A DNA stretch of 64,000 nt from an uncultured Acetobacteraceae bacterium (GTDB lineage: Bacteria; Pseudomonadota; Alphaproteobacteria; Acetobacterales; Acetobacteraceae): the NCBI GenBank assembly GCA_964236715.1, contig CAXSGE010000011.1, forward strand, positions 14,007 through 78,006, in the 5' to 3' direction. Positions within the stretch are counted from its first letter, which is position 1, and each line of letters begins with the position of its first letter. Shown in pieces: positions 1 through 9,263 of the stretch. The notes beneath the pieces were generated by a model. It had not been told where the DNA came from. It saw only the letters and a program-made list of their open reading frames with translations, and searched no databases. Made by a program: the position numbers and the translations under genes.

Positions 1-183
1 ACGATCGGCGCTTGGTGGCGGTTCCTGCAGGGCAATTTCGGCACCATCGAGACCGGCGGCCAATACTCTTACACGCGGCGAACCATCTTTCCCGGCGTCG
101 GCCCGACACCCGGCACACGCTTCACGCCCACGACCTCCGACAATATGTTCCTGTTCAGCTTCCGCTATTTGCCATTCCAATAG
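1..183 (+). CDS. 3' end of outer-membrane porin-like beta-barrel protein (partial)
   Basis: Frame 1 reads TIGAWWRFLQGNFGTIETGGQYSYTRR...NMFLFSFRYLPFQ*; alternating aromatic beta-strand pattern and C-terminal FSFRYLPF. Confidence 0.65.
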   Translation, partial: TIGAWWRFLQGNFGTIETGGQYSYTRRTIFPGVGPTPGTRFTPTTSDNMFLFSFRYLPFQ

Positions 184-316
184 GCTGCGCCCGCTGCCCG
201 CAGCAGGGTGAGCGCCCCTTTCACTCGTTGCCGCCCACGCTGCTGTCCTCGACGTAGAGCATCCGCATCACGACAAGCGCAGCCGCCGCCAGCCGCTTGC
301 CAAGAACGATGTCAGG

Positions 317-580
317 CTACTTCTTCACCTGGCCGGCCGTTGGCTGGCTCGTCGTGACGCCTTGTGCGCCCGACCTCGCCTGCTCGGCCGCGGAACCAGC
401 CGTCCCAGTTTGCCGCTCCGTCGAAGGGTTCGTATCGGCCGGCTGCGCCGTGCCCCCATTGGTGACGGACGGGGCCGTAGTGGTGTCGCGAGGCGTCCCA
501 GTCTGGATTTGCTGCGCCATCGCAGGCGAGACGGCCAGCGCGGCGACGCACGTAGCGGCGAAAAGGAACTTCAACATCAC
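317..580 (-). CDS. small secreted low-complexity protein
   Basis: Signal peptide ending AMA-QQ, Thr/Gln/Ala-rich mature part; 27 nt downstream of the cupredoxin gene. Confidence 0.7.
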   Translation of the reverse strand: MMLKFLFAATCVAALAVSPAMAQQIQTGTPRDTTTAPSVTNGGTAQPADTNPSTERQTGTAGSAAEQARSGAQGVTTSQPTAGQVKK

Positions 581-607
581 ACTTGCCTCCGATTGGGCTG
601 GTTCAAG

Positions 608-1153
608 CTAGCGGCGCGCATCGACCTTTGGATCGCGCACCACGATCCCAGGCGCTTGCGCCGCCTGGTCGACCTTCAAGTCCACGTACATCCCCTGCAC
701 CCCGTGGCCGGGAACGCCGCAGAATAGCCAGTATTCGCCGCCCTCGGCCGGCGTGCGGAATGAAAGCGTATCCTTCTGATTCGGGCCGAGCCCGCCCACC
801 GGGTTGTCGGTGTAGGCTTTGTTGATGGCCACCTGGTCCGCTCCCGCTTCCGGCGGAATTTCGTCCTGCGGATACCGTTTCGTCACCAGCAGCGAGTGGG
901 GCAGCATGCCGTCGTGGTTTTCCACCGCCATCCGAACCGTCCAGCCCGGCGGCACCACGACCGTCATGTCGCTTTCGTAATAGCCGTTGAAATTCAGCGC
1001 CCCGTTGTTCGGGTTCCAGCCGGCCACGATGTCCAGCGACACGGTCTTGGCGCCTGCATCCACCTTCATCCAGCTCGGCGTCGTGGCCTGTTGGGCAAGC
1101 GCCGGCATGGCGAGGAGCACTGCGGCGCAAGCGGCAGCAAAAACAGGTTTCAT
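608..1153 (-). CDS. sulfocyanin-like blue copper (cupredoxin) protein
   Basis: Signal peptide MKPVFAAACAAVLLAMPALA; LNFNGY motif; His in LPHS; C-x4-H-x4-M loop (CGVPGHGVQGM). Confidence 0.85.
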   Translation of the reverse strand: MKPVFAAACAAVLLAMPALAQQATTPSWMKVDAGAKTVSLDIVAGWNPNNGALNFNGYYESDMTVVVPPGWTVRMAVENHDGMLPHSLLVTKRYPQDEIPPEAGADQVAINKAYTDNPVGGLGPNQKDTLSFRTPAEGGEYWLFCGVPGHGVQGMYVDLKVDQAAQAPGIVVRDPKVDARR

Positions 1154-1213
1154 GCGATCATCTCCCGCAAGGGGCAACGGCCGGGTCACGCAACCCGGCC
1201 GCGCCGAATGCAC

Positions 1214-2890
1214 TCAGAGGCCAAACACGAAGATCGCGTCGCCCAGCTTGTAGTTCAGTTGGAAGTTGCCGCCTGCCGCCACGGCGACATACGGCTTGCC
1301 GTCCACCTCGAACGCCACCGGCGCCGAGTTCATGCCCGCGCCTCCCTGGAAGCTCCACACGACCTTGCCGTTCTTGGCGTCGTAAGCCTTGAACAGCCCG
1401 TTGCCCTCTCCCGCGAACACGAGGCCGCCGGCGGTGGTCAGCGCCCCGCTGATCATCGGATTGTCGGTCTTGGCGGTCCAATCGATCTTGCCGGTATCGA
1501 CGTTCACCGCGCAAACGTTGCCCCATTGCTCCTCGCCAGGGATCGCAGTGAACGCGCCGGCGAGCCAGAGCCGGCGTTGCTGCCAGGGCTCGGACTTGAC
1601 CACATAGTTCATTGGCTGGTGCAGGTTCACGTAATACACGTCGCGCGTCGCCGGGTTGAATGCGCCGGGCGACCATTCCACGCCGCCATTGGCCCCGGGC
1701 AACATCCGCACGCCCTCTGCCGTGGGCTGCGCGAACAGGTTCTCTTGCGGGACCATCGGCGGCGAGCGGCGAAGGAGCTTGCCGCTCTGCCGGTCATGCA
1801 CGTAGGCGAACCCGGTCTTTCCGCCGGTGATGACGCCCGGCACGGTCTTGCCGGTATCGTCCAGCACGTCGGCCAGGATGGGCGGGGAAACCGCGTCCAA
1901 GTCCCAAACGTCGTGCGGGACGTATTGATAGCCCCAGACCAGCTTGCCGTTGCTCGCATCGAGGGCCACCAGGCTGTCCGACCAGAGGTTGTCGCCGGGC
2001 CGGATGGCGCCGTTGAGGTCCGGGGAAGGGTTGCCAAGGGTCGCGAACATCAGCCCGGTCTTCGGGTCGATGGTGTTGGTCATCCAGTTCGACGCGCCGC
2101 CACGTTGCCAGGCGTCGGCGAATTTGCCGCTGGCGGCGGCTTGCTTTTCGGCTGCGATGTCGCGGTGCAGCGGGTCGCGGCCGTCCGCCTTCTCGGCAAA
2201 CGCGCCTTCCCAGCCCTTGGTGCCGTCGGGCTGTGCCTCGCCGGGTTCGGGGACGGTGTACCAGCGCCAGGCCTGCGTGCCGTCCTTGACGTTATAGGCG
2301 GTGATCATGCCGCGGATGCCGTATTCGGCGCCGCCCATGCCGACGATGACCTTATCCTTGAAGATGACCGGCGCCATGGTGAGCGAGTAGCCCATTTGCG
2401 GGTCCGCGACCTGCTGCTCCCAAAGCTTGTCGCCGGTCTTCTTGTCGATCGCGACCAGCATGGCGTCGAGCGTCGCCATGAACAGCGTGTCGTCCAGAAC
2501 CGCGACGCCGCGGTTGTTCGGCCCGCAGCACAGCGGCACCGTCCCGAGCTTCTGCTGGTAGTGCCAGAGCTGCTTGCCCGTGCGCACGTCGATGGCGAAC
2601 ACATGGTTGTAGGGCGTGGTCGCATACATGATGCCGTTCTCGACCAGGGGCGAGGTCTCGAAGCTGCCGAGCACGCCGGTCTGGAACACCCACTTGACCT
2701 TAAGCTGGTCCACATTCTGCGGAGTGATCGCCTTCGAGGGCCAGAACCGCGCCTGGGCCAGGTCGCCGCCATAGTTCAGCCAGTTGGCGCTCTGGTTGCC
2801 GGCGTTGACCAGGTCCTCCCAGGTCGCGGCCTGCGCCCCTGCTGTTCCCAGCACAAGGCCGGCCGCAATGAGCGTGGTTTTACCGATCAT
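1214..2890 (-). CDS. PQQ-dependent dehydrogenase, methanol/ethanol family
   Basis: Signal peptide, NWLNYGG, vicinal Cys pair (LCCGPNNRG), GAEYGIRG, GNPSP, PHDVWDLD, Trp-docking repeats; GGAGGA RBS. Confidence 0.93.
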   Translation of the reverse strand: MIGKTTLIAAGLVLGTAGAQAATWEDLVNAGNQSANWLNYGGDLAQARFWPSKAITPQNVDQLKVKWVFQTGVLGSFETSPLVENGIMYATTPYNHVFAIDVRTGKQLWHYQQKLGTVPLCCGPNNRGVAVLDDTLFMATLDAMLVAIDKKTGDKLWEQQVADPQMGYSLTMAPVIFKDKVIVGMGGAEYGIRGMITAYNVKDGTQAWRWYTVPEPGEAQPDGTKGWEGAFAEKADGRDPLHRDIAAEKQAAASGKFADAWQRGGASNWMTNTIDPKTGLMFATLGNPSPDLNGAIRPGDNLWSDSLVALDASNGKLVWGYQYVPHDVWDLDAVSPPILADVLDDTGKTVPGVITGGKTGFAYVHDRQSGKLLRRSPPMVPQENLFAQPTAEGVRMLPGANGGVEWSPGAFNPATRDVYYVNLHQPMNYVVKSEPWQQRRLWLAGAFTAIPGEEQWGNVCAVNVDTGKIDWTAKTDNPMISGALTTAGGLVFAGEGNGLFKAYDAKNGKVVWSFQGGAGMNSAPVAFEVDGKPYVAVAAGGNFQLNYKLGDAIFVFGL

Positions 2891-2920
2891 GTTTCCTCCT
2901 GTTTGCGTGTCGTCTTGCAG

Positions 2921-3556
2921 CTACTGCTTCGCAGACTCGATCTGTTCCGCGATGGCGGCGCCGAGCAGCCGTGCCTTGTGGGCGGTGTAGTCGAGCCGGT
3001 GGCACAGCAGTTCCGCGTCCTCTGCCCGGTCGCCAAGCGCGGCCCGGTTCCGCCGCTGCGCCTGTTCAATCGCCGTCCGCCGCTCGGGAGGGTCGTCCGC
3101 CCGAAGCGACGCTATGGCGCGGTCGCCGCCGGCCACCTCGTCCGCGAGCAGATGCGATTGCGCCACCTTGTCCGTGACCCCGTCCTCGATGAAACCGCGG
3201 AGCTGGTTGGTGCGGGCGATGACGCCGTCGAGGACGAGCGGCAGTGCCTGGGTGTTGCCGGACCCGGCCTCGCGCGCCAATGCGGCAATGCGGGCGACCC
3301 CCAAGTCCGGCACGTTCTCGGGCGCTGCCGCAAAATCGACCACCGCCCGGACGCGCGGGTCCGCCTTCCAGGCATTGCCGTCGTGGGCCGGCATGGCCAA
3401 GGGATGCGGCAGCAGAGTGGCGGCCGTCAGTGGGTCGGCGTCCACCCCGCGGCACGGCCAGTCCGGAAGCGGCCCAGACTGCGGCGGCGCAGCAAGAACC
3501 AGGCCGGCAGACCAGCCCATGAGGACCAGCGTCGACATGGCGAGACGGTTGTTCAT
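2921..3556 (-). CDS. exported helical protein with DWPC motif
   Basis: Signal peptide, PDWPC...WKADP...LLCHRL; GGAGGAG RBS upstream; directly precedes the PQQ dehydrogenase. Confidence 0.7.
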   Translation of the reverse strand: MNNRLAMSTLVLMGWSAGLVLAAPPQSGPLPDWPCRGVDADPLTAATLLPHPLAMPAHDGNAWKADPRVRAVVDFAAAPENVPDLGVARIAALAREAGSGNTQALPLVLDGVIARTNQLRGFIEDGVTDKVAQSHLLADEVAGGDRAIASLRADDPPERRTAIEQAQRRNRAALGDRAEDAELLCHRLDYTAHKARLLGAAIAEQIESAKQ

Positions 3557-3685
3557 CCTTGCCATCTCCTCCCAAGCTCGAACCAGCAACTCTCGCCCGC
3601 CACGATCTTTGCCCGTCTCAATCTTTGCCCGCCACAATCTTTGAAGGTATGATCTGCGATGTCAATTCTGTAGGGCCGCGGCACC

Positions 3686-3973
3686 ATGACGAAAGCGTTG
3701 ATCTCAACCGCATCCTGCGTCCTGCTCCTGTCTGTTGGAGTTGCGAGGGCTGCGGATGTAGCCGACCCGGACCTGGTCAAGCTATGCGTTGATGAACTCA
3801 AGTCCCGGCAGCCGCCGAGCGAGGTCCAGGAGAACACGGAGGTGGTTTTCTCGCACGTCGAGCGCACGGACTTACAGCAGGTTGTGGACGTGCAGGTGAC
3901 AGAAGCCGAGGGGCGGCGCGTCACTGGCCGGTGCGTCGTGCGCAACGGCAAGGTATTTGACTACAAAGGCTAG
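3686..3973 (+). CDS. small secreted hypothetical protein
   Basis: Signal peptide ending ARA-AD; two Cys in mature part; divergent from the PQQ operon. Confidence 0.7.
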   Translation: MTKALISTASCVLLLSVGVARAADVADPDLVKLCVDELKSRQPPSEVQENTEVVFSHVERTDLQQVVDVQVTEAEGRRVTGRCVVRNGKVFDYKG

Positions 3974-4019
3974 GAGTCCGGTGACGGGGCATCTCCGGCT
4001 ACGGCAGACGGCCGGCATC

Positions 4020-4146: not shown

Positions 4147-5778
4147 CTAAGCTGACCCGCTAACGATCCGGTCCGCGGTGCGCATCGCTATCGCGCTGAT
4201 GGTCAAATGCGGGTTCACGCCGCCCACGGTAGGGAACACCGAGCCGTCGCAGATCCAAAGGTTCGGGATGTCCCAACTGCGGCAGTTGGCGTCCACCACG
4301 CTGCTTTCACGGTCGAAGCCCATGCGCGCCGTGCCGCCCAGGTGGTTGGTGTCGTTCTCTTGGCGGAACACGTCGCGGGCGCCGACCGCCTCCAGGCTGG
4401 CCTGCATCTCGCCCAGCGCGTGCTGGATCATCGCCTTGTCGTTGTCGCCCCAGCTATAGGTCACGCGCGCGACCCGTAACCCATACTGGTCGACGTCGTC
4501 GTGCAAGGTCACCCGGTTGCGCTCGTTCGGCAGCATCTCGCCCACCATCTTCAGCCCGACCTGGTGGTTGTACTTGGCCATCTCGTCAACCAGCGCCTGG
4601 CCCCACAAACCGCGGGAGCCGGTCTGCACCGTCACCCACTCGATCGGCATCGGACCCTGCGCCATCCAGCAATAGCCGCCGTGGAAATCCTTGCGGTCCT
4701 CATAGTTCCAATGCTCGGTGATGGACAGCGAGGGCGGCCCCTTGTTCCAGCGCACCTCCTGCTCCATCGTGCCGAACACGGCCTGGTTGGATTGGGTCAT
4801 CAGGTTCTTGCCGACCAGGCCGGAGCTGTTCGCCAGCCCATCCGGGTAGCGGTCGGTTGCGGACGCGAGCAACAGCCGCGGCGTCTCGATCGCGTAGCCG
4901 GACACCACCACGTTGCGGGCGCGCTGGAACCGCCATTTGCCCTCGCGGATGTAATGCACCCCGGTCGCGCGCCCGTCGCGGCCCACCTCGATCCGTCCGA
5001 CCATGGCGAGGTCCCGGATCTCCGCCCCGGCCTTCAGCGCGCGCGGGATGAAAGTCACCAACTGGCTCTGCTTGGCGTTGGTCGAGCAGCCGAAACGGCA
5101 GAAGCCGCGGTAAACGCAGGACGGTGAATGGCCGCGCGGCGCCGACACGGTGGCCAGCGGCGTCGGCGTCCACTTATAGCCCATCGCCTCGGCGCCGCGG
5201 GCGAGCAGCTCGGCCGCGCCGTTCAGTTCGTGCGAGCGATACGGGTAGCGCGGGCGCTTCGGCCCCCATGGATAGTTCACTGGCCCCGAGATACTCAGCG
5301 CTTTCTCGACGCGGCCGTAATAGTCCCACATCTCGCGCCAATCGAGCGGCCAGTCGGCGCCATAGCCCAGCAGGCTGCGCGACTTGAACCACTCGGGGCG
5401 GAACCGCAGCGACACCATGGCGAAGTGCACGGTGCTGCCGCCGACCGCCTTGCCGCTGTTCTTGCCGCCCATCACCATGGGGTTGGCGCCGTCGACGACC
5501 CGCTCGTCGTTCCAGTAGATCTTGTTCTGCTCGGTCTCGTCGGACGCGAAATCCTCCAATGGGCGGAAATACGCGCCGGCGTCGAAGCCGACCACGGAGA
5601 GCCCGGCCTCCGCCAACCCGGCGAGCATCGGGCCGCCGCCTGCGCCGGTGCCGACCACGACGAAATCGACCTCCTCGTCGTCGCTGTGCTGCCGCATCGG
5701 CACCCAGCCGCCGACCTTGAACACGTCGGGCGCGCGGCCATAGGCGGCGCGCGGGGCGGCGAACGGATCAGCCGACAC
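4147..5778 (-). CDS. GMC family oxidoreductase (flavoprotein subunit)
   Basis: VVVGTGAGGG FAD motif, AVGGST, CVYRGFC, ETPRLLL, HLGGTARMG, DGSVFPT; GTG start overlaps upstream stop. Confidence 0.92.
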   Translation of the reverse strand: MSADPFAAPRAAYGRAPDVFKVGGWVPMRQHSDDEEVDFVVVGTGAGGGPMLAGLAEAGLSVVGFDAGAYFRPLEDFASDETEQNKIYWNDERVVDGANPMVMGGKNSGKAVGGSTVHFAMVSLRFRPEWFKSRSLLGYGADWPLDWREMWDYYGRVEKALSISGPVNYPWGPKRPRYPYRSHELNGAAELLARGAEAMGYKWTPTPLATVSAPRGHSPSCVYRGFCRFGCSTNAKQSQLVTFIPRALKAGAEIRDLAMVGRIEVGRDGRATGVHYIREGKWRFQRARNVVVSGYAIETPRLLLASATDRYPDGLANSSGLVGKNLMTQSNQAVFGTMEQEVRWNKGPPSLSITEHWNYEDRKDFHGGYCWMAQGPMPIEWVTVQTGSRGLWGQALVDEMAKYNHQVGLKMVGEMLPNERNRVTLHDDVDQYGLRVARVTYSWGDNDKAMIQHALGEMQASLEAVGARDVFRQENDTNHLGGTARMGFDRESSVVDANCRSWDIPNLWICDGSVFPTVGGVNPHLTISAIAMRTADRIVSGSA

Positions 5779-6409
5779 GGCTGTTCTCCCGCCGGGCGCG
5801 GGCTTCCTCGCCGGGCTTGGCCTCGGCCGCCTCCCATGGGTCGCGGCGGTCCAGTTGCATGCGGACGTAGCCGCGCGGGCTGGCCGGGCCGCCGAAGCCC
5901 AGCTCGTTCCACGACACCGGATGCGCGTAATAGGCATGGGTGATATCGGCGATCACCCGGTGCTCGAAGAACGGCTTGGGGGGCATGCCGCCCCACGCAT
6001 CGCACTTCAATTCACCCTCCTGCATGCGGTGGATCAGCGTGTCCTGCTGATCCCCAGGCAGGAGGTGAAATCGGCTGCCGTGGGCTGCCTGCGCCTCGGC
6101 ATCAAGTGCGGCCAGGCCGCGCTGCCAGGCCTCGCCCTGCGGCGGCAATGCGGCGTAGCGGTAGCCGTCCATGTGCTTTTCAGTGATCTTGCTGTCGACA
6201 TAGGCCGGCAATGGGATCGGCTCGCGGCCCGCCGGTTGCGGCATGATGCGGTCGCACAACGCGCTCAGCGTTTCCCACTCGGCGGCGGTGAAGAAGCGAG
6301 GATGCCGCGGGACATTGAGCCGGCGCTGGATCACCTCGCGCGTGATCTCGTTCCAAGACACCCCGTCCTGTTTCGCCATGACGTCGTAGCCGGGGTAGCG
6401 TTCAGTCAT
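5768..6409 (-). CDS. gluconate 2-dehydrogenase subunit 3 family protein
   Basis: RYPGYDV start, FFTAAEWETL, AYYAHP..WNELGFGGPASPRGY; adjacent to GMC gene. Confidence 0.85.
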   Translation of the reverse strand: MTERYPGYDVMAKQDGVSWNEITREVIQRRLNVPRHPRFFTAAEWETLSALCDRIMPQPAGREPIPLPAYVDSKITEKHMDGYRYAALPPQGEAWQRGLAALDAEAQAAHGSRFHLLPGDQQDTLIHRMQEGELKCDAWGGMPPKPFFEHRVIADITHAYYAHPVSWNELGFGGPASPRGYVRMQLDRRDPWEAAEAKPGEEARARRENSRVG

Positions 6410-7373
6410 CGGGGTGGTCCTCCATCAGGCCGAGGGCGGCGAGACCGGCCATCGCCAGGCCGGTGAAGCTTGGCGGCGCCGGGATGGGTGGGCCGTCGAG
6501 CACGTTCTGGCTCCAGTTGCGCCAGCCGCCCATGTTGCGGGCGACGCCCATTATGTGGAAGCCGGCCCCGGCCCAGCCCATGACGGCTGTCAGCCGCAGC
6601 CAAAACCGGGTCCAGCCGCGCTTGCGCCGGGTCGCCCCAGCGGCGGCGTTGCCCAGCAGTGCCGCCGTCAACGGCGGGATCGTCACCGGCAGGTACATCA
6701 GCGGGTTGTGGTAGGCGCCGCGGAAGTGCAGCAATCCCGCCTCCGCGACCGTGCCGATCAAGCCGACGCTGGAGGCGAGTCCCACCACGCGCCCCGCCGG
6801 CAGGCCCAGAATGGTCGGCGCCACTCCCGGCGTGGTGTCGCGCACGCGTTCGGACAGGAAGCCCAACGCGCCGGACAGCGTCAGCGCGGCCGGGGCGCCG
6901 AGCGGGGCGGAATAGAACAGGTTCTGCCACGAGAAGCCGCCGGGCCGCTTCGCCACGTTGTAAACGTGGAACGCGGTGCCAACGAGGCCGGTCAGCCCCG
7001 CCAGAACATAGACGCTGTCGCGGGCGCGATGTGCGACCGACCGTCCGTCATTGTTGCCGTGCGCGCTGACAGCAAGCGAGAGGCCCGCAGTCACCAGCGG
7101 CGTGAACATCGCCCGATTATGGAACAGCCCGCGGTAATGCTCGACCGCGCTATCCGCGAGCACGGAGGCGGCGATCAGCCCGGCCGACCGGTTCAGCCGC
7201 TGCGCCGCCCGCAATGCCGCCGATGGATCCAGTTCCTGACGCCGGACCGGAGCGACAAGCCGCGGAACGCGCGCGTTGACGATTGCCGGCGTGGAGCGCC
7301 GGGTCACCGCCATCGCGGCAAGACCCAGCAGCGCCGCCCCGGAGGTTGCGAGCGCGGTCGTGTTGCGTGCCAT
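6402..7373 (-). CDS. conserved membrane protein of the TPP/GMC cluster
   Basis: Several TM segments; internally duplicated motifs (EHYRGLFHN/LHFRGAYHN; GFSWQN/NWSQN). Confidence 0.8.
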   Translation of the reverse strand: MARNTTALATSGAALLGLAAMAVTRRSTPAIVNARVPRLVAPVRRQELDPSAALRAAQRLNRSAGLIAASVLADSAVEHYRGLFHNRAMFTPLVTAGLSLAVSAHGNNDGRSVAHRARDSVYVLAGLTGLVGTAFHVYNVAKRPGGFSWQNLFYSAPLGAPAALTLSGALGFLSERVRDTTPGVAPTILGLPAGRVVGLASSVGLIGTVAEAGLLHFRGAYHNPLMYLPVTIPPLTAALLGNAAAGATRRKRGWTRFWLRLTAVMGWAGAGFHIMGVARNMGGWRNWSQNVLDGPPIPAPPSFTGLAMAGLAALGLMEDHPDD

Positions 7374-7376
7374 GCT

Positions 7377-7469
7377 TTATCCTTTGGCGCCGGCGGAAAA
7401 CTGCTCGGCATCGGCCGGGACCGTGCAGGCTCGCGCCCGCACGTCCCGCACGGCCAGATCGCTCGCCAT
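7377..7469 (-). pseudogene. internally deleted enolase/mandelate-racemase family gene (30 aa remnant)
   Basis: MASDLAVRDVRARACTVPADAEQFSAGAKG*; fills the operon gap with 3-nt spacers; resembles N- and C-termini of the enolase usually found here. Confidence 0.55.
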
Positions 7470-7472
7470 CGC

Positions 7473-9263
7473 TCAGTGCTTGCCGGGCAGCACGCTGGCG
7501 ATGACCTGCTTGACGCTGTTCTTGAGCACGCTGCCCAGTTCAGGTTCGGTCGCCATCATGGTCAGGAAGTTCTTGGCGTCCTTGAACGTGATGTGCGGCG
7601 GCAATGGCGGCACGTTCGGATCGGCATAGACGTTCATGATCACCGGACGGTCGGCCGCGAACGCCTCGTCCCAAGCGGCGCCCAGTTGCTCCGGATCGCG
7701 CACCACGATTCCCTTGAGGCCGAGCAGTTCGGCATAGGTGTGATAGGCGAAGTCCGGGATGCTCTGCGTCGACTCGGTCTTGCCGTCACCGAGCTGCACG
7801 CGCTCCTCCCAGGTCACCTGGTTGAGGTCCTGGTTGTTCAGCACCATCACGATCAGCGTCGGGTTCGACCACTGCTTCCAGTATTTGGAGATGGTGATCA
7901 TCTCGTTCAGCCCGTTCATCTGCATCGCGCCGTCACCGATGAAGGCGATCACCACACGCTCGGGAAACGCCATCTTCGCGCCGATCGCGTACGGCGTCGC
8001 CGCGCCGAGCGATGCCAGGCTGCCCGACACCGACCCCATCATGCCGCGGCGCATCTTGATGTCCCGGCCATACCAGTTGGCGACCGAGCCGCTGTCGACG
8101 GTCATGATGCAGTTCTCGGGCAGGCGCTTGGAGCACTCCCAGAACACCCGCTGCGGATTGATCGGCTCGGCGGCGATCATCGCCCGGTCCTCCAGCGTCT
8201 GCCACCACTTCGACACGCCCTTGGCGATATCGGCGCGCCAGCTCCCGGCCTCTTTTTGCTCCAGCATCGGCAGCAACGCCCGCAGTGCCGTGGCGCTGTC
8301 GCCGGCCATGCTGACCTCCATCGGGTAGCGCAGGCTGAGCCGGGTGGGGTCCAGGTCGATCTGCACGCCGCGGGCCGAGCCGGGCTTCGGCAGGAACTCG
8401 CTGTACGGGAACGATGAGCCCACCATCAGCAGAGTGTCGCAATCCTGCATCAGATCCCAGGACGGCGCGGTGCCGAGCAGCCCCAGGCCGCCAGTGACCC
8501 ACGGCAGGTCGTCCGGCAGCACCGCCTTGCCGAGCAACGCCTTGGCGCAGCCAGCCTGCAGGCGGTCCGCGACGGCCATCACCTCGTCGGTGGCGTTCAG
8601 CGCGCCGGCGCCGACCAGCATGGCGATCTTCTTGCCCGCGTTCAGCACCGCGGCCGCCTGTCGCAGCGCCGCCTCGTCCGGCATCTTGGCCGGGCCGGCA
8701 TGCCCGACCCCGGTGTGGGTGGTCCCGTGCACCAGCGGCGGGTCCTCGTAGGGCAGCAACTGCAGGTCATTGGGGATGATGACGCAGGTGACGCTGCGGG
8801 TGGCGGACGCGATGCGGACGGCGCGGTCAATAAGCTGGCGAACCTGTTCCGGCACCATGACGGTCTCGACGAACTCGCTGGCGACGTCCTTGAACAGGTT
8901 CTGCAGGTCGACTTCCTGCTGGTAGTTGGCGCCAATGGCGGTGCGCGCCTGCTGTCCGACGATCGCAACCACGGGCACGTGGTCCATCTTGGCGTCATAC
9001 AAGCCGGTCAGCAGGTGGATCGCACCAGGCCCAGAGGTGGCGTAGCAAAGCCCGACCTCGCCGGTGAACTTGGCATGGGCTGACGCCATGAAGGCTGCCA
9101 TCTCCTCGTGGCGGACCTGGACATACTGCATGGTGTCCTTGGCCCGCTCCAGCGCCAGGTCGAGCCCGCCAACGCCGTCGCCGGGATAGCCGTAAACGCG
9201 CTTCAGGCCCCACTCGCCCAGCCGTTTCCAGACGAACTCGCTCACGTTCATGCTCACAGCCAT
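7473..9263 (-). CDS. thiamine pyrophosphate-requiring enzyme (pyruvate oxidase/dehydrogenase-like)
   Basis: YGYPGDG, RHEEMAAFMA, TSGPGAIHL, GDGAMQM...NN TPP motif. Confidence 0.93.
   Translation of the reverse strand: MAVSMNVSEFVWKRLGEWGLKRVYGYPGDGVGGLDLALERAKDTMQYVQVRHEEMAAFMASAHAKFTGEVGLCYATSGPGAIHLLTGLYDAKMDHVPVVAIVGQQARTAIGANYQQEVDLQNLFKDVASEFVETVMVPEQVRQLIDRAVRIASATRSVTCVIIPNDLQLLPYEDPPLVHGTTHTGVGHAGPAKMPDEAALRQAAAVLNAGKKIAMLVGAGALNATDEVMAVADRLQAGCAKALLGKAVLPDDLPWVTGGLGLLGTAPSWDLMQDCDTLLMVGSSFPYSEFLPKPGSARGVQIDLDPTRLSLRYPMEVSMAGDSATALRALLPMLEQKEAGSWRADIAKGVSKWWQTLEDRAMIAAEPINPQRVFWECSKRLPENCIMTVDSGSVANWYGRDIKMRRGMMGSVSGSLASLGAATPYAIGAKMAFPERVVIAFIGDGAMQMNGLNEMITISKYWKQWSNPTLIVMVLNNQDLNQVTWEERVQLGDGKTESTQSIPDFAYHTYAELLGLKGIVVRDPEQLGAAWDEAFAADRPVIMNVYADPNVPPLPPHITFKDAKNFLTMMATEPELGSVLKNSVKQVIASVLPGKH

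Follow-up and report, generated by a model that had tools for sequence, protein, structure and literature searches.

A type I PQQ dehydrogenase predicted to deliver electrons to a co-encoded SoxE-family cupredoxin in the place of cytochrome c

The window analysed here is a stretch of 64,000 nucleotides (contig C11:14007-78006) from a 4.9-Mb assembly, 83% complete, of an uncultured soil Acetobacteraceae bacterium. It contains a minus-strand operon in which the gene of a type I, eight-bladed pyrroloquinoline quinone (PQQ) dehydrogenase (1214-2890, 558 residues, PF01011 at 7e-84) is followed by that of a type 1 blue-copper protein with a SoxE domain (608-1153, 181 residues counted from MKPVF, PF06525 at 1e-15; the listed open reading frame runs to 1213). 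Both proteins have a Sec signal peptide. Together they probably constitute a periplasmic module in which, as sequence comparison and a modelled complex suggest, the dehydrogenase would pass its electrons directly to the co-encoded cupredoxin instead of to a cytochrome c. A preliminary description of the window had put this arrangement forward, and it is now supported in silico by linkage, co-occurrence, the equivalence of the slot downstream of the dehydrogenase, natural fusions and the complex model. Gene order, conservation, co-occurrence, slot equivalence, fusions, the intact ligands for copper and for PQQ and its metal, and a complex model that passes its controls were computed; the electron transfer itself, the use of a lanthanide, the substrate and the final acceptor are what we infer. 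The reported lack of a CxxCH haem motif in the four proteins of the operon was confirmed, and the motif is also missing from every open frame of at least 60 residues within positions 1-4000.

A survey of gene neighbourhoods had been proposed along with the module. In a cupredoxin-seeded scan, with one genome per species, 80 loci were collected, and the 66 with at least 1.9 kb of upstream sequence were counted. A dehydrogenase of at least 45% identity lies upstream of the cupredoxin and on the same strand in 51 of these 66 loci, within 400 bp in 43, and on the opposite strand in three more, divergently and within 1 kb in two of them and at a distance of 7 kb in the third. The linked loci span Acetobacteraceae, Stellaceae, Azospirillum, Rhodospirillaceae, Kiloniellaceae, one Vulcanimicrobiota metagenome-assembled genome (MAG) and many Gemmatimonadota. 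The arrangement is kept in two phyla, with cupredoxin identities of 38-60%. Some Gemmatimonadota pairs have one or two genes between cupredoxin and dehydrogenase. In a cupredoxin tree every alphaproteobacterial sequence with enough flank is linked to a dehydrogenase or has one nearby, and no cytochrome gene is conserved across the cupredoxin loci. The Vulcanimicrobiota case (Candidatus Cybelea, loci L067 and L030) is an observation apart: this non-proteobacterial MAG carries an alphaproteobacterial-type trio of dehydrogenase, cupredoxin and the upstream DWPC protein described below, at 70% identity, and its sequences nest among those of Alphaproteobacteria in the tree, an indication of horizontal transfer or mis-binning.

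The reverse survey started from the dehydrogenase, in an even sample of 400 alphaproteobacterial genomes that are related to each other and thus not independent. Twelve genomes gave a match at E <= 1e-120, five of them at 60% identity or more, three at about 50% with intact flanks, and four with the locus cut by contig ends. The cupredoxin gene is directly downstream in all five genomes of the first group. A cupredoxin search of the same 400 genomes returned exactly these five, each with a single copy in the same place, and none of the remaining genomes. Co-occurrence of the two genes is therefore strict in this sample.

The position held by the cupredoxin is occupied by cytochrome c in related operons. 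The same genome encodes two further type I PQQ dehydrogenases, on contigs C42 (L081:802-3171) and C68 (L082:186-3573), both with the D-x-D motif and both passing TIGR03075 (555 bits for C42, 769 for C68), and in each a PF13442 cytochrome c comes directly next. The C68 copy is also accompanied by a XoxJ-like SBP_bac_3 gene, which completes the xoxF-xoxG-xoxJ order; a DUF4142 protein and a PCuAC copper chaperone adjoin the C42 dehydrogenase. Because the genome keeps these two cytochrome-linked enzymes, an iron-sparing purpose, as had been suggested for the operon, is not borne out. Closer to the dehydrogenase of the window, all three enzymes of about 50% identity with intact flanks in the 400-genome sample have a di-haem cytochrome c of about 210 residues in the downstream slot, as identified by Pfam. 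Sister-clade dehydrogenases with a di-haem cytochrome c next to them, all retaining the WDLD motif, are found at L092:1447-3751, L093:776-3177, L094:1507-3808 and L024:5911-7494. Locus L024 holds both carrier types, with a divergent SoxE cupredoxin 0.5 kb from the start of the dehydrogenase. A maximum likelihood tree of the dehydrogenases, rooted with the genome's own C42 and C68 paralogues, resolved a cupredoxin-linked Gemmatimonadota clade, a cupredoxin-linked alphaproteobacterial clade and a di-haem-linked alphaproteobacterial clade (97, 99 and 100, respectively, in the Shimodaira-Hasegawa-like approximate likelihood ratio test), the last being sister to the alphaproteobacterial cupredoxin-linked clade with a support of 96. 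Sister clades thus carry one or the other, and the downstream gene within one branch of the family can be either carrier.

In other relatives the two partners are joined in one polypeptide. An exhaustive HMMER search with the dehydrogenase over 1.84 billion cluster representatives (50% clusters) yielded 1,976 relatives at E <= 1e-30, and the two best representatives, P0125 (752 residues, 45% identity) and P0129 (741 residues, 44%), combine a PQQ propeller with a C-terminal SoxE domain. Both keep all four copper ligands (His, Cys, His, Met) and the FNG motif, and in both the cupredoxin domain adjoins the propeller directly, Pfam reporting no haem motif. P0129 is letter-identical on nine contigs from independent samples, including a 363-kb NCBI MAG contig, and is a single gene there; it is therefore no artefact of gene calling. 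Among other dehydrogenase relatives, P0131 from Chloroflexota (MBV9175216.1) has a fused plastocyanin-type domain, and cytochrome c is fused N-terminally in P0132 and P0158 and C-terminally in P0175. The fused forms branch just outside the core clade of the tree. Sequence comparison indicates that the electron acceptor is an exchangeable module throughout this branch of dehydrogenases, the SoxE cupredoxin being attached in the way haem c is attached in type II alcohol dehydrogenases (ADH). The corresponding search for longer proteins from the cupredoxin side gave four long matches only, none with a PQQ domain. Two of the proteins with additional domains, P0122 (875 residues, SoxE with TonB-dependent receptor domains) and P0123 (494 residues, SoxE with a catalase domain), have one or two members each on a single contig and may be gene-calling fusions.

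The cupredoxin passes the Pfam SoxE model with 58 bits against a threshold of 21. The ligands listed in the preliminary description, a histidine followed by C-x4-H-x4-M, correspond to H86, C145, H150 and M155, and they were found to be invariant in alignments of 23 and 42 homologues, as were the NFNG part of the described LNFNG motif and a further N-x-D-x3-PHS motif. Type 1 copper is recognised by a ligand set of His, Cys, His and Met together with a C-terminal Cys-xn-His-xn-Met loop, and the 181-residue protein is accordingly assigned, from its sequence, to the type 1 copper proteins of the SoxE family, with predicted copper binding. The term sulfocyanin-type holds for the domain but not beyond it: the protein reaches 53.3 bits with the sulfocyanin equivalog TIGR03094 (cut-off 168.4) and 34.3 bits with the rusticyanin equivalog TIGR03095 (cut-off 146.7), and is best called sulfocyanin-like by domain. 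A profile search of the Protein Data Bank (PDB) returned only distant cupredoxins, namely the N-terminal domain of Hyphomicrobium nitrite reductase, 6kol and rusticyanin, the match of the cupredoxin profile to rusticyanin 1rcy being about 40 bits.

The dehydrogenase, with a predicted signal cleavage at about A21/A22, scores 460.6 bits with the methanol/ethanol dehydrogenase family TIGR03075 (453.9 bits in a six-frame search), slightly below the cut-off of 480.05. Its closest solved structure is the lanthanide enzyme PedH (6zcv, 282 bits), XoxF and MxaF structures scoring somewhat lower, and its identity to PedH and to the XoxF-like paralogues of the same genome is about 33-35%. The type I features are present and align with PedH: the PQQ propeller, the vicinal cysteine pair and the Glu, Asn and Asp metal ligands. 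Residue by residue, the active-site loop PHDVWDLDAV aligns with PHDGWDFDGV in PedH, and the vicinal C121-C122 (CCGPNNRG), the Glu of GAEYG, the Asn of GNPSP and the WDLD motif are kept in all 55 aligned cupredoxin-linked relatives. The additional aspartate two residues past the catalytic one, the D-x-D hallmark of lanthanide enzymes, is present as well, and from this motif alone the use of a lanthanide appears likely. The surroundings fit neither of two known types, as there is no adjacent xoxG and xoxJ (no CxxCH and no SBP gene within the operon) and no C-terminal haem c domain of the type II quinohaemoprotein ADH (558 residues, without CxxCH).

Modelling of the pair, also suggested in the preliminary description, was performed with the mature chains, alignments of 42 rows of paired orthologues and three controls. 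The enzyme-cupredoxin models scored 0.65, 0.65 and 0.62, compared with 0.00 for the best of the three controls; this score is the model's own confidence and no measurement. Among the calibration cases of the tool, 58 of 80 solved complexes attained the mark, as did 2 of 110 mismatched pairs; with author-made alignments these counts hold only roughly. The runs agree on at least 91% of contacts, and the cupredoxin has a pLDDT (predicted local distance difference test) value of at least 91. On the enzyme side the interface comprises the Cys-Cys loop (117-121 and 123-124) and the rim of the funnel (400-401, 425-452 and 543-549), and on the cupredoxin side residues 45-53, 79-85, 119-126, 147-149 and 152-153, the loops flanking the ligands H86, C145 and H150. 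P124 and F543 of the enzyme contact P148 of the cupredoxin, two residues ahead of His150. The copper site thus faces the PQQ funnel in the model, and the predicted docking has the geometry expected of electron transfer from PQQ to copper. We know of no solved complex of a PQQ propeller with a cupredoxin, and memorisation of such a complex by the model therefore seems unlikely.

A mechanism can be proposed on this basis. The dehydrogenase, probably with a lanthanide ion in its active site, would oxidise an alcohol or aldehyde substrate, and the reduced PQQ would deliver its electrons one at a time and directly to the type 1 copper centre, with the His150 patch of the cupredoxin docked where the PQQ funnel opens, over the Cys121-Cys122 loop. 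Once reduced, the cupredoxin would diffuse to an acceptor of the respiratory chain, for which the CuA site of a haem-copper oxidase is the likeliest candidate. Toward its enzyme it would fill the role that cytochrome cL/XoxG or c550 has toward MxaF, XoxF, ExaA and PedH. A fragment of haem-copper oxidase subunit I (COX1) is present in the assembly of the window, and pqqC was found in a near-identical relative and in three other host genomes.

The pair is part of a larger operon. As described earlier, it consists of four closely spaced, co-oriented genes, each with a signal peptide. They lie on the minus strand, separated in gene order by 30, 60 and 27 bp; each is preceded by a GGAG-type ribosome-binding site, and the signal peptides are hydrophobic N-terminal segments. 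The first encodes a secreted helical protein with a DWPC motif (2921-3556, minus strand, 211 residues from MNNR; the listed frame runs to 3637) and the last a small secreted low-complexity protein (317-580, minus strand, 87 residues, with a GGAGG ribosome-binding site and a signal peptide). A secreted 95-residue protein is transcribed divergently (3686-3973, plus strand), with conserved cysteines C34 and C83 and an EGR...GK-FD end. The intergenic region between it and the operon (3557-3685) is a probable promoter region; a promoter scan gave a sigma-70-like site on the plus strand at 3625-3653, by consensus match only, and terminator and promoter scans of the locus gave nothing exceeding chance. 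The same locus occurs on a complete Acetobacteraceae MAG chromosome (L001), with 92-97% protein identity for the DWPC protein, dehydrogenase and cupredoxin, and 87% and 85% for the 87- and 95-residue proteins.

The operon of four genes thus exists, but only the dehydrogenase and the cupredoxin make up its conserved core. In alphaproteobacterial loci a DWPC protein of 27-45% identity is encoded ahead of the dehydrogenase; Gemmatimonadota loci do not have it. W33-P34-C35 of its PDWPC motif and C185 are conserved among its homologues, and its model is a long helical hairpin (pLDDT 90.5). Pfam and NCBIfam gave no match, Foldseek no PDB match, and the ESM Atlas only clusters of hypothetical proteins. 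By tblastn, the gene of the 95-residue protein was located at the corresponding divergent position of 17 loci; two of its cysteines are invariant (alignment A5), and its model is a helix packed on a four-stranded sheet (pLDDT 77). A PepSY/NTF2-like fold was considered for it and dropped, the PDB search having produced only weak NTF2/SnoaL-like rows (E >= 0.04) and no significant match. Both proteins are alphaproteobacterial additions to the core pair; that they serve in maturation or metal supply is a guess. Homologues of the 87-residue protein, which has no Pfam or NCBIfam family match, were found only in L001 (87%) and in L002 (78%, elsewhere in the locus). As it is conserved in the two closest relatives only, it is lineage-specific and not a core part of the module; a sub-threshold row suggesting a His-rich BRANT protein was ignored.

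The neighbours of the operon vary from host to host, and the substrate of the dehydrogenase can therefore not be deduced from them. In the window, a separate operon on the minus strand (4147-9263) encodes a thiamine pyrophosphate enzyme (NF006129, 1009 bits), a 323-residue membrane protein without family, a gluconate 2-dehydrogenase subunit-3-like protein and a GMC oxidoreductase, with no cytochrome subunit; its adjacency to the PQQ operon is not kept in other hosts. On the other side, a convergent gene is represented by its 3' end at positions 1-183 (plus strand); the FRYLPFQ with which its product closes is typical of the C terminus of an outer-membrane beta-barrel or porin. Additional cupredoxins were observed in Gemmatimonadota. 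A plastocyanin/azurin-family protein exported by the twin-arginine translocation pathway, together with a TTHB210-like protein, is often situated between the dehydrogenase and the SoxE gene (e.g. L049:6781-8465 and L076:7150-8456), and in other loci the dehydrogenase is preceded by a second, divergent SoxE paralogue (the loci drawn on for these extra cupredoxins are L049, L076, L026, L031, L036, L043, L047, L052, L071 and L075). These arrangements suggest a chain of several cupredoxins. A five-gene cluster (L085:8544-11024) adjoining a PAS-GerE regulator is made up of an unlinked Gemmatimonadota SoxE paralogue, a PF00127 copper protein and three small proteins of unknown kind, and looks like a different cupredoxin module.

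Several observations weigh against direct transfer from PQQ to the cupredoxin, or against parts of the proposal. Twelve of the 66 loci, all from Gemmatimonadota, have no linked dehydrogenase, so the cupredoxin family is not exclusive to this role; in the cupredoxin tree the unlinked copies fall within one derived Gemmatimonadota sub-branch. Residues that switch between cupredoxin-linked and cytochrome-linked clades are not enriched at the modelled interface, with 1 of 22 strict switches falling among the 33 interface residues where about 1.4 would be expected. G75E, V448K, A449V, F543T and L549R do differ, and partner-specific switching of the interface was nevertheless discarded under the strict rule and these differences are not counted as evidence. 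The lanthanide was assigned from the single D-x-D motif. No pqqC was found in the window's own 83%-complete assembly, in a search that also left control genomes unmatched. Soluble cytochromes c are encoded elsewhere in the genome, and an unlinked one could be the direct acceptor with the cupredoxin as a later carrier.

This last point leads to the question whether the cupredoxin belongs to the pathway only as a relay, with an unlinked cytochrome c taking the electrons from PQQ and the cupredoxin handing them on to the oxidase. Azurin, the named natural acceptor of type II ADH, has such a place, the enzyme's own haem c standing between PQQ and copper (PMC8348568), other cytochromes c are at hand in the genome, and at L024 a di-haem cytochrome c follows the dehydrogenase with the divergent cupredoxin nearby. 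Yet the loci share no conserved cytochrome gene, the fusions attach the cupredoxin domain to the propeller with no haem motif detected by Pfam, and the complex model sets the copper loops on the PQQ funnel; a relay is considered rather unlikely. It seems quite improbable that the cupredoxin has a non-redox or maturation role, such as copper handling or the oxidative maturation of the Cys-Cys disulfide or of PQQ, and that electrons leave by another acceptor. The accessory DWPC and 95-residue proteins do hint at maturation functions, but the complete and invariant His-Cys-His-Met site is the signature of an electron carrier, cytochrome c takes the same slot in related operons, and Gemmatimonadota retain the pair without these accessories. 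Mere historical hitch-hiking of the two genes, with no functional coupling, could account for the Gemmatimonadota copies that are unlinked or one or two genes apart; it is very unlikely for a pair that is kept in two phyla despite the divergence of the cupredoxin, co-occurs strictly in the 400 genomes and has been fused independently. Direct reduction of the cupredoxin by the dehydrogenase is therefore the preferred reading. Going further, we lean towards an undescribed, widespread and haem-free "quino-cupro" class of ADH, in which a lanthanide-type PQQ enzyme would directly reduce a SoxE copper protein, separate or fused at the C terminus, with the alphaproteobacterial DWPC and 95-residue families serving maturation or metal supply. 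The adaptation to acidity once proposed for the operon did not stand, as the hosts, Azospirillum and a variety of soil MAGs among them, give no sign of being acidophiles and the proteins show no low-pH pointers.

In textbooks, the definition of type I PQQ alcohol and methanol dehydrogenases includes a dedicated cytochrome c. PedH, ExaF and XoxF share with the present enzyme the eight-bladed propeller, the vicinal cysteines, the Glu/Asn/Asp ligands, the D-x-D aspartate and the periplasmic location, and they too have a small secreted one-electron carrier encoded immediately downstream (PedF/ExaB c550, XoxG). Their carrier is a c-type cytochrome, whereas the proposed carrier here is a type 1 SoxE copper protein and a XoxJ-type binding protein is missing. 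The methylamine and aromatic amine dehydrogenases, which contain tryptophan tryptophylquinone (TTQ), use amicyanin and azurin, respectively, as direct, co-encoded acceptors. By analogy they resemble the proposed module in joining a periplasmic quinoprotein with a dedicated cupredoxin, but their TTQ is derived from the protein itself, on a small subunit, and their sequences show no relation to those of the PQQ propeller family. Sulfolobus sulfocyanin (SoxE) and Acidithiobacillus rusticyanin share with the cupredoxin PF06525 and the His...Cys-x4-His-x4-Met pattern, as well as the weak TIGR03094, TIGR03095 and rusticyanin-structure matches. In contrast to them, it is a soluble, Sec-exported bacterial protein that belongs neither to an archaeal SoxM oxidase complex nor to an iron-oxidation chain, its scores lie far below the equivalog cut-offs, and its hosts are no known acidophiles.

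In the literature, type I PQQ dehydrogenases are described with the cytochromes XoxG, MxaG and c550 (PMC10875860; bioRxiv 10.64898/2026.07.10.737718). Azurin accepts electrons from type II quinohaemoprotein ADH after the haem domain (PMC8348568). The types IIB and IIG with azurin are likewise PQQ alcohol dehydrogenases whose electrons reach blue copper, and their layout of an enzyme followed by a C-terminal carrier domain is matched by the fused P0125 and P0129; they differ by the haem c placed between PQQ and azurin, whereas the present module lacks haem and its cupredoxin is SoxE/rusticyanin-like and not azurin. For cytochrome-less Thaumarchaeota, a blue-copper route from PQQ dehydrogenases was suggested speculatively and in passing (PMC7300363). 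A full-text search of the literature, with thin coverage of subscription journals, gave no description of a sulfocyanin-like protein as the partner of a bacterial PQQ dehydrogenase. The locus is read as a PQQ dehydrogenase system with a dedicated acceptor, the acceptor module being a SoxE-family cupredoxin.

The cultured species Azospirillum soli and A. canadense carry the operon, which makes the claim directly testable. If it is true, the pair and its natural fusions would offer a natural PQQ-to-copper electron-transfer system useful for bioelectrocatalysis and enzyme engineering, and annotation screens for methylotrophy and alcohol oxidation that are keyed on xoxG-type cytochromes would miss this branch. 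The sister operons present an evolutionary case in which cytochrome and cupredoxin have been swapped in one genetic slot, and the respiratory models of abundant soil Gemmatimonadota and Rhodospirillales would change.

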